From positions 1 to 64,000 of the IMG/VR virus record IMGVR_UViG_3300017917_001839: 64,000 nt of DNA; one strand, given 5' to 3'. The position numbers were made by a program, and so were the translations under genes. Source of the stretch: a virus. This document shows, piece after piece, positions 1,273 to 31,464 of this stretch (within the stretch, counting starts at the first letter, position 1; each line of letters begins with the position of its first letter). The notes beneath the pieces are model-generated. The model was not told where the DNA came from. It did no database searches and was given only the letters and a program-made list of their open reading frames with translations.

Positions 1273-1368
1273 GTTGTTGATTTACAACAGGTTTTTTTGG
1301 TTTAAAACTGGTTGACAACAGCTCTAATTCTGCTATACTACATATGTAGGATGAGAGTTAAGGAGTGA
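1270..1368 (+). promoter_or_regulatory. early promoter cassette: IHF-consensus site, -35/-10, conserved leader and SD
   Basis: TAAGTTGTTGATT(1270-1282); TTGACA(1312-1317)-16bp-TATACT(1334-1339); leader ATGTAGGATG(1344-1353); AGGAG. Near-identical copies at 27.8 and 28.1 kb. Confidence 0.8.
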
Positions 1369-26751: not shown

Positions 26752-27018
26752 ATGTCAAATACGACAACTAAGGAAGCCCGTGTGCTCGAAGCACTTAAGG
26801 CTAATAACCGTGGTCTTACTGCCGCACAAATTGAAAGCCAGTTTGGCGTAGGTAATGCCCGTTCAACCGTATCAGCACTTCGCATGAAGGGTTTCGCAAT
26901 CTATGCAAACCAGCACACTGATACAAAGGGTCGCACTAAGACTTTCTATCGTCTAGGCACCCCAAGCCGCGCTGTTGTTGCAGCCGGTTACAAGGCACTC
27001 GCCGCAGGCCTTGTCTAA
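26752..27018 (+). CDS. small winged-HTH DNA-binding protein
   Basis: LTAAQIESQFGVGNARSTVSALRMKGFAIY...YRLG. Confidence 0.7.
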   Translation: MSNTTTKEARVLEALKANNRGLTAAQIESQFGVGNARSTVSALRMKGFAIYANQHTDTKGRTKTFYRLGTPSRAVVAAGYKALAAGLV

Positions 27019-27081
27019 GCCTTTACTGTTCTCCTAAAACGTAAATAAGGCTGGAAAGGGGCGTTCTGCCCCTTTCCTTTT
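27018..27081 (+). terminator. anti-SD-loop hairpin followed by intrinsic terminator
   Basis: Bulged stem around loop TGTTCTCCTAAAAC (27027-27040), then GGAAAGGGGC-GTTCT-GCCCCTTTCC-TTTT. Confidence 0.75.
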
Positions 27082-27755: not shown

Positions 27756-27805
27756 GCTAAGTCTTTGATTTATATAGAGATTCGCTAAGTTATTGATTTA
27801 TATAG
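27756..27805 (+). repeat. tandem direct repeat of an IHF-consensus element
   Basis: GCTAAGTCTTTGATTTATATAG (27756-27777) and GCTAAGTTATTGATTTATATAG (27784-27805). Confidence 0.75.
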
Positions 27806-27841: not shown

Positions 27842-27895
27842 TTGACCTTTTTCCTAAAGATGCTATACTACATATGTAGGATGAGAAATAAGGAG
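27842..27895 (+). promoter_or_regulatory. early promoter/leader cassette, copy 2
   Basis: TTGACC-16bp-TATACT, then ACATATGTAGGATGAGAAATAAGGAG. Confidence 0.8.
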
Positions 27896-27901
27896 CGTTA
27901 A

Positions 27902-28066
27902 ATGACTGCTTTTGTTGCTCGCAATCACAACGGTACGCTAATTGGCTGGAACGTTGACCTCGGAAACCTAATGGAAGAAGCTATGGTTTACGAGGAAGTT
28001 ACCGGAAATAAAGTATACATTAACGAGGAAACTTTCGCGGAAAAACCCGAAAGAAATCGTCGATAA
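27902..28066 (+). CDS. 54-aa early hypothetical protein
   Basis: Hand translation MTAFVARNHNGTLIGW...RNRR; has its own promoter and AAGGAG RBS. Confidence 0.75.
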   Translation: MTAFVARNHNGTLIGWNVDLGNLMEEAMVYEEVTGNKVYINEETFAEKPERNRR

Positions 28067-28071
28067 ACCGG

Positions 28072-28125
28072 TTGACAACAGACCAAAATTTGCTATAATG
28101 TATATGTAGGATGAGAAATAAGGAG
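28072..28125 (+). promoter_or_regulatory. early promoter/leader cassette, copy 3
   Basis: TTGACA-16bp-TATAAT, then GTATATGTAGGATGAGAAATAAGGAG. Confidence 0.8.
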
Positions 28126-28131
28126 TTTGAA

Positions 28132-28479
28132 ATGACTGTTGCAGTTTCCCCCGAAATGGTTCCCCAGATTGTTGCAGAAGCAGAGCAGGCTGCTAAGGCC
28201 GCTGCCGCTAAGTTCTTCCAAGAGCGTTTGGGCGGTAAGGATCAGTATGCTTGTGGCTTTGCCTGGGTTGAGATTTTTAATGTTAAGGGTAACACCAAGC
28301 TGGGCAAGGCGCTTGCCGCTCAGGGCATTCGCAAGAGCTACAGCGGTGGCTTGCAGATGTGGAACCCCAGCAAGATGATGGTACAGAACGTAGATACGCT
28401 GGAGGCTGGTGCAGATGCTGCCGCGGCAGTGTTCAAGAAGTACGGCTTTACCGCTTACGCTGGTTCGCGTTTGGATTAA
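28132..28479 (+). CDS. phage hypothetical protein
   Basis: Start at 28132 after AAGGAG; CGFAWV...AYAGSRLD motif. Confidence 0.75.
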   Translation: MTVAVSPEMVPQIVAEAEQAAKAAAAKFFQERLGGKDQYACGFAWVEIFNVKGNTKLGKALAAQGIRKSYSGGLQMWNPSKMMVQNVDTLEAGADAAAAVFKKYGFTAYAGSRLD

Positions 28480-28587: not shown

Positions 28588-28812
28588 ATGAAACGAACTT
28601 CAAACAAATTTGCGCGAATTAGTTTCTACGGAGACTTGGTAGTCCCGCTGAATCTACTAGAAGACTTTCTAGAAGAGTGCTATTCAGTCTCTACTGAATA
28701 CAAGGACGGTGACTACGTAATCACTAAGGCAAAGAAGCTTAATAACTTCGCTGTACATGAGCGCGAAGAGATTGAAGTTGGGCTATCGCAGGCCGCACTG
28801 GAAAAAAATTAA
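28588..28812 (+). CDS. hypothetical protein
   Basis: ATG at 28588 within ORF-track frame 28567..28812. Confidence 0.55.
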   Translation: MKRTSNKFARISFYGDLVVPLNLLEDFLEECYSVSTEYKDGDYVITKAKKLNNFAVHEREEIEVGLSQAALEKN

Positions 28813-28821
28813 AAATACCGG

Positions 28822-28883
28822 TTGACAAAGTTTAGCAATATGCTATTATAACAGCATAGAGTTTGTTTTTAAGGAGTGATGTA
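28822..28883 (+). promoter_or_regulatory. promoter and RBS of the AAA ATPase gene
   Basis: TTGACA(28822-28827)-16bp-TATTAT; RBS AGGAGTGATGTA(28872-28883). Confidence 0.7.
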
Positions 28884-28885
28884 AA

Positions 28886-29992
28886 ATGGATACTTTGAGT
28901 GTTAAGCCGTCCCAGGTGTCAACTATTGCACTGCGGGCAATGATGGCTAATCGTCCCTTGTTTATCTGGGGGCCTCCGGGTATTGGTAAGAGTGAACTTG
29001 TGCAGGGTATTGCAGACAGCGGTGCCCTCGGTAGTACGCTAGTTATTGACTTGCGTCTTGCTCTGCTTGAACCCACCGACTTGCGTGGTTACCCCTTCCG
29101 GAACCCAGAGACCAATACAATGGATTGGTCACCTCCGCAGGATCTCCCCAGCGAAGCAGTTGCGGCTCAGTACGATACTGTTATCCTGTTCCTAGACGAG
29201 CTTAATAGTGCTCCTCCTAGTGTGCAGGCGGCGGCTTATCAGCTGGTACTTAACCGTCGCATCGGTCAGTATGTTCTTCCTAAGAACGTTAAGATTGTTG
29301 CCGCAGGTAACCGCGAAACTGACCGCGGTGTTACGTTCCGTATGCCGGCTCCGCTGGCTAACCGCTTCCGTCACATTAACATGGCAGTAGACTTTGGCGA
29401 CTGGCAGCGTTGGGCTATCAACAACGAAATCCATCCAGACGTTATTGGTTACCTTTCCTACGCCAAGCAGGACTTGTTCGACTTTGATCCTAAGACTAGT
29501 TCACAAGCGTTCGCTACTCCGCGTTCGTGGTCATATGTTAGCGAAATCCTGTTTACTCCGGGCTTCGAAACTGTAGACACGTTTGAACAGAAGGCAGAAG
29601 TTGCCGGTGCTGTTGGCGAGGGTATGGCAGGTAAGTTTGTTGAGCATCGTCGAATTGCTAGCCACTTGCCCAAGCCGGAAGATGTTCTTGCTGGCAAGGT
29701 GAAGAAGCTGGATAACAAGCTCAACCAGGAAATTTCCGCCAAGTACAGTCTGGTTGTTGGTCTTACGTATGAGATCAATCAGATGTACAAGGAGAACGGT
29801 ACCAAGGGTCCGTTTAAGGATTCATTCAACAATGCTGTACGTTTTGCTTACGATAACTTTGAAGCAGAAATGGTTATCTTGTTCTTCAAGACTATCATGA
29901 CCGACTACGGTATCAAGTTTAACATCCGCACCGATCTTGAGCAGGATCTGTACAAGGTGTTCAGCGAGCGGTATACCAAGTACTTGGTATAA
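28886..29992 (+). CDS. MoxR-like AAA+ ATPase
   Basis: Walker A GPPGIGKS, Walker B LFLDELN, AAGN sensor, LANRF arginine finger, TPRSW. Confidence 0.9.
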   Translation: MDTLSVKPSQVSTIALRAMMANRPLFIWGPPGIGKSELVQGIADSGALGSTLVIDLRLALLEPTDLRGYPFRNPETNTMDWSPPQDLPSEAVAAQYDTVILFLDELNSAPPSVQAAAYQLVLNRRIGQYVLPKNVKIVAAGNRETDRGVTFRMPAPLANRFRHINMAVDFGDWQRWAINNEIHPDVIGYLSYAKQDLFDFDPKTSSQAFATPRSWSYVSEILFTPGFETVDTFEQKAEVAGAVGEGMAGKFVEHRRIASHLPKPEDVLAGKVKKLDNKLNQEISAKYSLVVGLTYEINQMYKENGTKGPFKDSFNNAVRFAYDNFEAEMVILFFKTIMTDYGIKFNIRTDLEQDLYKVFSERYTKYLV

Positions 29993-29997
29993 GTTCA

Positions 29998-30070
29998 GAA
30001 AAGCGCCACATCCTACATCACTCCTGTGGCGCTTTTCGAGTCCCTCTACTGCAAAGTAGGGGGACTTTTT
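29998..30070 (+). ncRNA. candidate 3'-UTR-derived anti-RBS small RNA plus intrinsic terminator
   Basis: Perfect 13-bp stem (29998-30010/30025-30037) with loop TCCTACATCACTCC complementary to several phage leaders; then a GCAA-tetraloop terminator (30039-30066) and T run. Confidence 0.6.
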
Positions 30071-30076
30071 ATTTGC

Positions 30077-30146
30077 TAAACTGTTGATTTACTGTGGGTT
30101 TTTTGCCACATTTACCAGTTGACATTACCCTGTTTTCGTGTATAAT
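30077..30146 (+). promoter_or_regulatory. IHF-consensus site plus sigma70 promoter
   Basis: TAAACTGTTGATT(30077-30089); TTGACA(30119-30124)-16bp-TATAAT(30141-30146). Confidence 0.75.
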
Positions 30147-30171
30147 ATAAGTATAGTGAAAGGATGGATAT

Positions 30172-31464
30172 ATGAGCACCAGTACTGATAAGCGAGCTTC
30201 TAAAACACTTCGACCCATTCCGGAGACTAAGAAGACGTCCGCGCAAATTGAAGATGTTCTAATTCGCGCTCGCGTTAATATGCTAATTAACGCACCATTC
30301 TTTGGTAACTTGGCTACACGGCTTCGCTTTAAGGATGCTACAGAATGGTGTCCTACTGCCGCTACAGATGGACGTTACTTCTACTACAATCGAAACTTTA
30401 TCGATGCTCTAGGCGACGGTGAAGTTGTGTTCCTGATGGGACACGAAGTTCTCCACTGTGTTTACGACCACATGGATAAGTCGCGTTTGGGAAGTCGCGA
30501 TCCGCGTCTTGCTAATATTGCGCAGGACTTTGTTATTAACGGCGATCTTATTGAAGCTCAGATTGGTGAGAAGATTAAGATTGTTGATATCTGTTTTGAT
30601 TACAAGTACCGCGGTAAGTTTTGGGAAGAAATTTACGACGACTTGTTTGCCCAAGCCGAAAAGGATGGTCGCGTAATTAACTTGGATACGTTTGATATCC
30701 ACTTGGATCGCGATGACGATGGCGATGACGATGGCTCCGGTGACGGCGAAGGTGACGACAAGAATGACGGCACTAAGGGTCCTGTTCGTTACAGCAAGGA
30801 AGAGAAGCAACGCATTAAGGAAGAATTCCAGAATGCTGTTATGCAAAGTGCTAAGGTATCAGGCGGTGCTGGTAACTTGCCTGGTGGTGTTAAGCGCCTA
30901 ATTAATAAGTTGCTCAACCCACAGTTGAGCTGGCGCGAGCTGTTGCCAATGCAGATCCAGAGCGTTATTAAGAGTGACTATACTTATATGCGTCCTAGCC
31001 GTAAGGGACTAGACGCTGGCTTCTACTTGCCTGGTATGGATCGGGAGCAGACAATTGATGTTGCTATTGCACTAGACTTGTCTGGCTCAATCAGCGATGA
31101 GATGTCCACAGACTTCCTTAGCGAAATCCACGGCATCATGAGTCAGTACAATGACTTTAACATTCACTTGTTCTGCTTTGATACTAGTGTGCATAACCCA
31201 GTTAAGATTACCGCAGACACTGCAAATGACTTGCTTACTTATGAGCTTGTTGGTGGTGGCGGTACTGACTTTGACTGTTGCTTCAACTATATGAAGGAAG
31301 AAGGTATCGTTCCTAAGAAGTTCATCATGTTTACAGATGGATATCCATGGGGTTCATGGGGCGACGAAACTTACTGCGATACGCTGTTTATTGTACACGG
31401 TGGTAAGGGTGACCAAGTTCCAACTTCACCGTTTGGTATTACTGTACCTTACAGTAGGGATTAA
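30172..31464 (+). CDS. DUF2201-type metallopeptidase-vWA protein (MoxR partner)
   Basis: TAATDG, HEVLH (HExxH), acidic linker, MIDAS DLSGS, GGGGTDF, FTDG. Confidence 0.88.
   Translation: MSTSTDKRASKTLRPIPETKKTSAQIEDVLIRARVNMLINAPFFGNLATRLRFKDATEWCPTAATDGRYFYYNRNFIDALGDGEVVFLMGHEVLHCVYDHMDKSRLGSRDPRLANIAQDFVINGDLIEAQIGEKIKIVDICFDYKYRGKFWEEIYDDLFAQAEKDGRVINLDTFDIHLDRDDDGDDDGSGDGEGDDKNDGTKGPVRYSKEEKQRIKEEFQNAVMQSAKVSGGAGNLPGGVKRLINKLLNPQLSWRELLPMQIQSVIKSDYTYMRPSRKGLDAGFYLPGMDREQTIDVAIALDLSGSISDEMSTDFLSEIHGIMSQYNDFNIHLFCFDTSVHNPVKITADTANDLLTYELVGGGGTDFDCCFNYMKEEGIVPKKFIMFTDGYPWGSWGDETYCDTLFIVHGGKGDQVPTSPFGITVPYSRD

Follow-up and report, generated by a model that had tools for sequence, protein, structure and literature searches.

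OppZ and CarZ of Vibrio cholerae have been described as autoregulatory small RNAs (sRNAs) derived from 3' untranslated regions (3'UTRs); RNase E excises them, and their action in trans involves Hfq (Hoyos et al. 2020; PMC7398697). For icaR of Staphylococcus aureus, pairing of the 3'UTR with the Shine-Dalgarno (SD) sequence has been reported (Ruiz de los Mozos et al. 2013; PMC3868564). According to a 2025 preprint (PMC12697547), sequences resembling the anti-SD and located hundreds of nucleotides (nt) downstream pair with the ribosome binding site (RBS), prevent initiation and favour decay, and genes are depleted of them. Here, we describe a hairpin located immediately after the stop codon of a MoxR-like AAA ATPase gene in the IMG/VR virus record IMGVR_UViG_3300017917_001839. 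The analysed stretch (64,000 nt; hereafter, the window) is the first 64 kb of one contig of 122,294 bp (41% G+C), a metagenome-assembled phage genome by appearance. The reading that we favour, with a probability of roughly two in three, is that the 3'UTR of the ATPase mRNA constitutes a conserved autoregulatory anti-RBS element, which would restrain the translation of its own gene. Pairing between the hairpin loop and leaders appears to have been selected, and the comparative data favour the gene's own leader as the partner.

The first of two hairpins (hairpin 1; 29998-30037, + strand) begins 5 nt past the ATPase stop codon (TAA, 29990-29992, read directly) and is formed by 13 perfect pairs (29998-30010 with 30025-30037), closing a 14-nt loop devoid of G, TCCTACATCACTCC (30011-30024, + strand). 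The 3' half of this loop is antisense to the gene's own RBS, and the 5' half is antisense to ATGTAGGA, the motif found at the 5' end of early leaders. Hairpin 2 directly adjoins hairpin 1; together with a T-run it spans 30038-30076 (+ strand), a region designated as the intrinsic terminator of the ATPase transcript by folding and terminator scoring. It comprises 13 pairs (30038-30067; 6 of them G-C) and a 4-nt GCAA loop, followed by TTTTTATTT, and displays the attributes of an intrinsic (Rho-independent) terminator, namely a GC-rich stem, a short loop, and the tail TTTATTTGCT. RNAfold predicted precisely these two hairpins (-43.4 kcal/mol, z = -8.0), and none of 200 shuffled sequences folded as well. 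A perfect 13-bp stem with a 14-nt loop and a separate terminator after the ATPase stop codon had already been proposed in a first-pass annotation of the window, and all of its coordinates hold. Two other interpretations of the region were rejected: an anti-terminator made of the 3' arm of hairpin 1 and the 5' arm of hairpin 2, since these arms are not complementary, and a minus-strand gene start in the loop, since no open reading frame (ORF) of at least 40 amino acids (aa) begins there and the wobble pairs fit the + strand only.

The ATPase gene itself (28886-29992, + strand) encodes a 368-aa protein (Pfam AAA_5, PHROG 1297). It is preceded by a strong sigma70-type promoter (28822-28849, + strand; TTGACA, a 16-nt spacer, and TATTAT with a TG-extended -10), which matches the sigma70 consensus at 11 out of 12 positions in addition to the TG. 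A homologous promoter was found in every relative examined. From the position of the -10, we infer a transcription start near 28856; the predicted leader, RBS, and start codon then extend over 28856-28888 (+ strand) and include the 12-nt target of the loop, AGGAGTGATGTA (28872-28883). The leader, of about 30 nt, showed no significant structure (z = 0.44). With a separate promoter (at 30119) serving the partner gene directly downstream, we predict a monocistronic ATPase mRNA of about 1.2 kb whose 3' end falls in the hairpin region. No promoter-like site was found on the + strand between 28850 and 30118, so the hairpin has no promoter of its own. The element is thus flanked by the stop codon and the terminator of the mRNA itself, a position shared by regulators of the OppZ/CarZ type.

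Pairing of the loop region with the ATPase RBS over 12 nt out of 12, as claimed in the first-pass annotation, was confirmed: AGGAGTGATGTA occurs once on the + strand (28872-28883) and once on the - strand (30014-30025), that is, 2 matches versus 0.26 expected at ≤1 mismatch. When the loop-region 17-mer was compared with 28872-28888, 15 out of 17 positions matched, start codon included (2 matches versus 0.09 expected). A target scan of both strands of the 122-kb genome with RNAduplex ranked the ATPase RBS as the best target of the loop apart from the loop's own antisense, at -22.8 kcal/mol (next target, -20.4 kcal/mol; 0.1 percentile, -16.2 kcal/mol). Base-pairing with the own translation-initiation region, typical of OppZ and CarZ, is therefore present as computed complementarity, and, as in icaR, the mRNA's SD is complemented by a motif in its own 3'UTR.

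To describe this element in other phages, we collected relatives by searching with the ATPase protein (80 IMG/VR loci and 80 of about 330 metagenome homologues, the two sets overlapping), which gave 161 records including the window, 152 complete and 9 partial. The element was defined as a stem of 8-15 pairs starting 5-9 nt past the stop codon and closing a 14-28-nt loop that contains CCTAC and CTCC and at most 2 G, followed by a second, GC-rich hairpin. So defined, it was found right after the ATPase stop codon in 92 of the 152 complete loci and was absent from the other 60; the 92 loci represent 50 distinct leader/hairpin combinations. It was single-copy in each locus and always in this position. 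Two adjacent hairpins, the second always GC-rich, were predicted in each of 21 non-redundant loci. The element reaches ATPase relatives of about 54% identity, and remoter homologues have a plain terminator; the closest cultured homologue of the ATPase, from Pseudomonas phage PA5oct (47% aa identity), has a plain terminator and no display hairpin. A megablast of 28700-30400 against the phage collection gave no match, and scanning IMG/VR for an exact 30-nt piece of the hairpin gave 0 matches.

Stems and loops evolved very differently. Among 10 clade representatives, the stem arms were 25-27% identical, with 3-5 pair types at each of 9 stem positions, versus 77% identity in the loops, in which G accounted for 4.5% of the bases (11 out of 247). 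The loop is thus conserved in relatives, a point on which the first-pass annotation had staked its proposal. In 15 distinct stems, 10 G.U and 0 A.C pairs were counted as read on the + strand, indicating that the selected structure is the RNA of the coding (+) strand, and neither DNA nor the minus strand. Since a MAFFT alignment of 18 elements was structurally inconsistent, it was not used for covariation; stems were anchored by script instead, and pair changes on both sides were counted only in the alignment of the close subclade. In this window subclade (4 distinct sequences, 90-100% ATPase identity), all 81 cells paired and 5 pairs were changed on both sides; none of 500 shuffles reached the observed values, and slid controls paired at 43-56%. 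The 14-nt loop was identical in the four full-length subclade relatives, and a partial fifth one (L088) exhibited a 2-nt insertion. In random windows, a stem of at least 9 bp with a 12-32-nt loop was found in 320 out of 3000, and in 3 out of 3000 when a pyrimidine-rich CCTAC/CTCC loop was also demanded. CCUAC was repeated two to three times in all loops of the hairpin 1 type, whatever the exact RBS, and many loci had a conserved CAGUU in the interval from stop codon to stem.

Another hairpin, also conserved, was observed after the ATPase stop codon in L056, L058, L065, and L078, as well as in L057 and L060; it has a GGAGG/CCTCC stem and presents an SD-like CAGGAG in its loop, i.e., the opposite polarity to the element studied here. 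The loops of L001-L004 (e.g., L001:4125-4152) contain TACCTTGTTAC, which we take to be the complement of a conserved 16S rRNA stretch corresponding to the 1492R primer site; the leader consensus (GTAACAA..AAGG) may account for its presence.

Read as its reverse complement, the loop resembled, in every clade, the early leader of the same phage, joining a motif of the predicted transcript start (TGTAGGT, CATAGGT, or AGTTAGG) to the SD with its flanking bases. Of the 50 distinct combinations, 49 had at least 7 contiguous nt of complementarity to the own leader. Duplex energies between loop and own leader were better than those of composition-preserving shuffles in 10 out of 10 clade representatives (p = 0.0005-0.02), and reversed loops gave matches of only 3-6 nt. 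RNAduplex comparisons of long loops with whole loci were noisy (G.U pairing with GG-rich coding sequence), and longest exact matches and leader-only rankings were added. Among the 5-13 SD-bearing leaders of each locus, the own ATPase leader ranked first in 9, second in 8, and third in 1 of 18 loci, its usual competitor being the leader of the partner VWA gene just downstream. Within the own mRNA of about 1.2 kb, the hairpin loop was the best partner of the RBS in 15 of these 18 loci.

Moreover, differences between clades in the RBS's private part went together with differences in the loop, giving at least eight matched versions: RBS AGGAGTGAT(GTA) with loop (TAC)ATCACTCCT, AGGAGTAAC with GTTACTCCT, AGGAGTAGTA with TACTACTCCT, GTAGGAGTAA with TTACTCCTAC, GGTAGGAG with CTCCTACC, AAGGTAGGT with ACCTACCTT, GCAGGAGAA with TTCTCCTGC, and GTTAGGAGC with GCTCCTAAC. 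RBS flank and loop read GTGAT/ATCAC in the window type, versus GTAAC/GTTAC in the L140 type. Two of these versions come from clades with another 3' architecture, L079 and a clade with a mini-hairpin. The latter structure, observed just after the ATPase stop in L018, L023, L028, L030, L033, L035, L039, L041, and L076, has the stop codon inside a 5-bp stem (CCTAG/CTAGG) and the loop TTCTCCTG, which complements the own RBS as GCAGGAGAA in L018, L023, and L039 and as CAGGAGAA in L028 and L041. In L018 and L039, the ATPase RBS has the sole copy of CAGGAGAA within 7 kb, and the hairpin at the stop codon the sole copy of TTCTCCTG. The match was weak in L033, which has AAGGAGATAA.

Within the window subclade, the same loop is retained with two homologous leader variants. 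In the leader of L088-L090, 9 nt at the SD and ATGTAGG at the transcript 5' end pair with the loop; in the leader of the window, L082, and L144, the 5' motif is lost (CATAGAG) and the match on the SD side extends to 12 contiguous nt (11 in L083). Hence, what matches the 5' end of the ATPase mRNA itself in relatives is the loop half that, in the window, matches three other early leaders. As for the covariation of loop and leaders, which the first-pass annotation had put forward as a check, joint change with the loop was seen for the own ATPase leader, with its eight or more matched versions, whereas the three early leaders are unchanged in close relatives and carry no such information. One locus, L099, appeared to be a mosaic of an L001-type ATPase leader and an L003-type 3'UTR hairpin, suggesting that subclades have recombined inside the ATPase gene or adjacent to it.

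How such an element might act can be proposed from its layout. Hairpin 1 would hold a G-poor, pyrimidine-rich loop open in a 3'UTR of about 80 nt, this loop serving as the antisense of the SD with its private flank and, in many relatives, also of the first bases of the transcript; hairpin 2 would terminate transcription and protect the 3' end. Loop-RBS pairing would cover the SD, and in the window also the AUG, and would thereby block loading of the 30S subunit, such that the gene would limit its own output. It could take place within one molecule (5'-3', icaR-like) or between molecules, through a fragment comprising hairpins 1 and 2 cut from the mRNA (OppZ/CarZ-like). Pairing in the cell, repression rather than activation or stabilisation, the cis or trans mode, and the processing of a 3' fragment are what we infer beyond the complementarity itself. 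Since transcription reaches the loop about 1.1 kb after the leader, the initial ribosomes would load freely and repression would occur only after the transcript is complete or the fragment has built up; the outcome would be a delayed negative feedback. With a stem starting 5-9 nt after the stop codon, terminating ribosomes should, given the ribosome footprint, melt the base of the stem. The CAGUU between the stop codon and the stem presumably fits the preference of RNase E, which is only suggestive. Of the cis 5'-3' interaction that the first-pass annotation had offered as one option, the pairing with the own leader is supported by its first rank genome-wide, by the 15 loci out of 18, and by the clades in which RBS and loop differ together; nothing in the analysis speaks for a toxic protein, or for the timing function that the annotation had attached to its sRNA option.

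A bolder version, which we regard as rather doubtful, is that these phage mRNAs close on themselves: the loop would pair with the first nucleotides and the SD of its own transcript together, functionally circularising a prokaryotic mRNA, with a counting or gating of translation and a brake in trans. In L001, L005, L006, and L011, the loop matches the 5' end and the SD in the same order as they occur in the leader. Ribosomes stopping 5-9 nt upstream would melt the hairpin at each termination, by which the element could count or gate rounds of translation; after decay of the mRNA, the surviving pair of hairpins would act as a brake in trans on early leaders sharing the 5' motif.

Several observations weigh against the simpler reading of an autoregulatory anti-RBS element. 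Its support comes from sequence computation, and the genome is a metagenome assembly. With a 14-nt loop held by a 13-bp stem, there is no room for the 12-bp helix unless the stem opens in part. The clades being phylogenetically related, their combined p value (~1e-16) overstates independence and is an upper bound on significance. The own leader ranked below the top in 9 of the 18 loci, and in L002, L008, and L049 the loop was not the best intramolecular partner of the RBS. Moreover, any loop containing CUCC is trivially anti-SD, and in L096, where the RBS is mutated, the match was only 6 nt. The cross-clade matrix of loops and leaders was not diagonal-dominant, loops matching the leaders of other clades nearly equally because motifs are shared; strict one-to-one covariation was therefore clear only for some pairs. 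Finally, CCUAC was present in every loop, even where the own leader is devoid of GUAGG (window, L006, and L008), which points to additional targets or to a protein partner.

Additional targets are at the heart of the alternative that survives best, although we consider it unlikely: a stable fragment made of hairpins 1 and 2 would act as the sRNA of a regulon, pairing in trans with the 5' ends and SDs of several early mRNAs and shutting early translation down. The shape of two hairpins with a U-tail is typical of 3'UTR-derived sRNAs. Three early leaders of the window carry the exact 10-nt complement of the loop region, as the first-pass annotation had pointed out: ATGTAGGATG is located at 1344-1353 (+ strand) in the leader of a 91-aa gene (1372-1647; leader 1344-1368), and at 27874-27883 and 28104-28113 (+ strand), the predicted mRNA 5' ends of a 54-aa gene (27902-28066) and a 115-aa gene (28132-28479), respectively, all three being possible trans targets. 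Together with 30009-30018 on the - strand, this makes 4 exact matches versus 0.16 expected (0 out of 100 shuffles), a count no longer enriched at ≤1 mismatch (6 matches versus 4.0 expected); on the loop side, 2 of the 10 bases (30009 and 30010) belong to the stem. The three + copies lie in near-identical, paralogous promoter-leader modules (1312-1374, 27842-27904, and 28072-28134), which precede the 91-, 54-, and 115-aa genes, all of no known function, and consist of TTGAC(A/C), 16 nt, a TG-extended -10, then ATGTAGGATGAGA..TAAGGAG, a layout retained in L082, L090, and L144. The copies thus amount to one independent evolutionary event and not three, and the matches stand as such, without a sign of independent selection.

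Further points are consistent with such a regulon. The first leader also carries AGGAGTGA (1361-1368), loops of relatives resemble a compressed consensus of early leaders (5'-end motif plus SD), and the universal CCUAC of the loops, found even when the own leader is without GUAGG, as well as the CAGUU with its presumed fit to RNase E, would suit an excised fragment with several targets. Other leaders, especially that of the partner VWA gene, were near runners-up, as in several relatives, or the best targets (L002, L016 group, and L011). The agreement is less good in the window itself. The three leaders reached only about -11.7 kcal/mol, versus -19.5 kcal/mol for the own RBS in the leader ranking, and were outside the top 30 targets genome-wide. 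AGGAGTGA, although present as first reported, was not above chance (3 versus 1.35 expected; 18 out of 100 shuffles), and a simple antiparallel bipartite duplex would need the two sites at 1344-1368 in the reverse order. The two motifs noted earlier in the leader of the partner gene, AGTGA (30155-30159) and AGGATG (30161-30166), are there too, as 5- and 6-nt matches that are weak and not above chance. The three early leaders and the loop are unchanged in close relatives and give no information on covariation, and none specific to them could be shown; the ATPase RBS is the sole site of the matched motif in L018 and L039. The hairpin has no own promoter, and a discrete RNA is a prediction. Overall, the shut-off of early mRNAs in trans, as originally suggested, keeps real leader matches in its favour and is possible, with no specific comparative support.

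A protein partner is considerably less probable than this, in our view. The loop would be a site for a protein or the ribosome (S1, or a cold-shock-type or phage RNA-binding protein bound to CCUAC/CUCC), or hairpin 1 a plain stabiliser ahead of the terminator, with complementarity arising as a by-product. The CCUAC repeats, conserved regardless of the exact RBS, and the strong depletion of G from the loops would be expected from this, and a second hairpin of the window, at 27018-27081, has a CUCCU loop with no match to its own RBS beyond the SD core. A plain stabiliser would nonetheless need no conserved loop, and by-product complementarity should have been reproduced by composition-preserving shuffles, which failed to do so, as did reversed loops with their 3-6 nt. 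Private RBS flanks (GTGATGTA, GTAAC, GTAGTA, and GCAGGAGAA) are mirrored in the loops, and clades with quite different 3' elements (the mini-hairpin of L018, and L079) still mirror their own RBS. The hairpin at 27018-27081, which has a bulged stem, the loop TGTTCTCCTAAAAC, and a terminator, follows an 88-aa gene (PHROG 4973); it is similar in L001 and L002, reduced to a single-stranded TTCTCCA in L003 and L004, and absent from more distant relatives. Given this narrow conservation and the limited match to its own RBS, it was not counted as the same element.

Last, chance or a relic at the DNA level (an inverted copy of the leader trapped in a palindrome, or a minus-strand feature) has very little probability: although the loop reads as an RBS plus ATG on the minus strand (AGGAGTGATGTAGGATG) and hairpin 1 of the window is symmetric enough to fold on either strand, this explanation is largely refuted by wobble pairs that fit the + strand RNA only, by stems completely replaced yet still paired down to about 54% ATPase identity, by the own-leader matches in 49 out of 50 combinations, by the single copy always placed after the ATPase stop codon, and by the lack of any minus-strand ORF of note.

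Around the ATPase gene, the partner gene (30172-31464, + strand), whose promoter and leader span 30119-30174 (+ strand) with a weak match to the loop (AGTGA and AGGATG), encodes a protein with DUF2201_N (putative metallopeptidase) and VWA-like domains according to Pfam; in view of these domains, the name 'HNH endonuclease' attached to its family, PHROG 1314, looks like a misannotation. An 18-mer, GCTAAGTTGTTGATTTAC, was found in four copies at ≤3 mismatches (1268-1285, 27756-27773, 27784-27801, and 30075-30092; 0.10 expected), each located 25-60 nt upstream of a sigma70-like promoter (1312, 27842, or 30119), and L001, L002, and L014 have similar words (TAAGTTGTTGATTT) at the corresponding position; the 18-mer may bind a regulator or serve as a UP-type site. 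Two tRNA genes were observed upstream of the ATPase locus in L011 (1003-1155). In a search of sequencing runs, the best DNA match was a pond metagenome, near-identical DNA was present in several metagenomes (contigs of four runs), and no RNA runs carrying the stretch were listed.

If the favoured reading is right, a distant anti-SD, a kind of sequence that the preprint cited above argues to be generally harmful and selected against (PMC12697547), would here be positively kept; and because such sequences are normally selected against, one that is conserved, displayed in a loop and matched to the RBS is hard to explain as neutral. It would be displayed in a hairpin loop and tuned to the RBS of its own gene across many uncultured aquatic phages. 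To our knowledge, it would have no described precedent among conserved autoregulatory 3'UTR elements of virulent-type phages. The eight or more RBS/loop versions would offer a natural series of matched pairs for studying long-range mRNA pairing in translation control, and annotators may wish to treat the piece that follows this ATPase gene as more than a terminator.

No Rfam family matched the element. An E-value search of Rfam with 29800-30300, a check that the first-pass annotation had also proposed, retrieved no family (best hit, PyrR, at 31.3 bits versus a threshold of 54), and a search of 11 related loci at the Rfam 15 gathering thresholds retained only two tRNAs. Long-range 5'-3' locking is a feature of type I toxin mRNAs such as hok, with its fbi-tac pairing, and aapA1 of Helicobacter pylori. 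As would be the case here, the 3' end of these mRNAs pairs with their own 5' end or SD region and keeps them untranslated; they are, however, switched on by trimming at the 3' end and under the control of an antitoxin sRNA, whereas no toxin, antitoxin RNA, or processing is evident at the ATPase locus. No description of this phage element was found by full-text literature searching, the scope of which leaves aside supplementary tables of phage sRNAs (e.g., PMC10914365).

Among phage RNAs, the c4 antisense RNA of P1 and P7 resembles the element in that loop-exposed sequences pair around an RBS on the same transcript and block translation (PMC12197685). As described there, however, c4 is a separate processed RNA located upstream of its target (ant) and involved in the immunity of temperate phages. 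The cuckoo RNAs of Alphaproteobacteria (CcsR/alpha-r14) likewise have stems that vary greatly and loops that share a conserved, pyrimidine-rich motif resembling an anti-SD, CCUCCUCCC (PMC4615179), to which CUCCUCCUAC, contained in the loops of L006, L007, and L011, may be compared. They are described as having 2-4 adjacent hairpins, each with the same motif (PMC4615179), whereas one display hairpin is present in this 3'UTR: only hairpin 1 is large-looped, with UCCUACAUCACUCC, and hairpin 2 has GCAA. In addition, the motifs here differ between clades and follow the RBS of the gene, unlike those of cuckoo RNAs.

The closest resemblance is to icaR and to OppZ and CarZ. In icaR, a 3'UTR anti-SD motif also pairs with the SD region of its own mRNA, and this pairing is reported to block formation of the initiation complex (PMC3868564). 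The icaR 3'UTR is long (>100 nt) compared with about 80 nt here, and its duplex is an RNase III substrate, whereas a duplex of 12-17 bp (12 contiguous) is probably too short to be one. The icaR motif is a generic UCCCCUG, whereas the loop described here extends its match to the RBS's private flank and, in relatives, to the mRNA 5' end; it belongs to a phage gene and is conserved across many uncultured phages. With OppZ and CarZ, the element shares a regulator that lies in the 3'UTR, uses the terminator of the mRNA, and is complementary to the RBS region of its own transcript, as well as the negative translational feedback predicted here. It differs from these RNase E-released, Hfq-dependent sRNAs in being known from its sequence alone, in its putative target, the first cistron, and the only one, of a monocistronic phage mRNA, and in the display of its seed in a large hairpin loop. 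By analogy, the element would thus work like OppZ/CarZ and icaR, while being a member of none of the systems with which it was compared.

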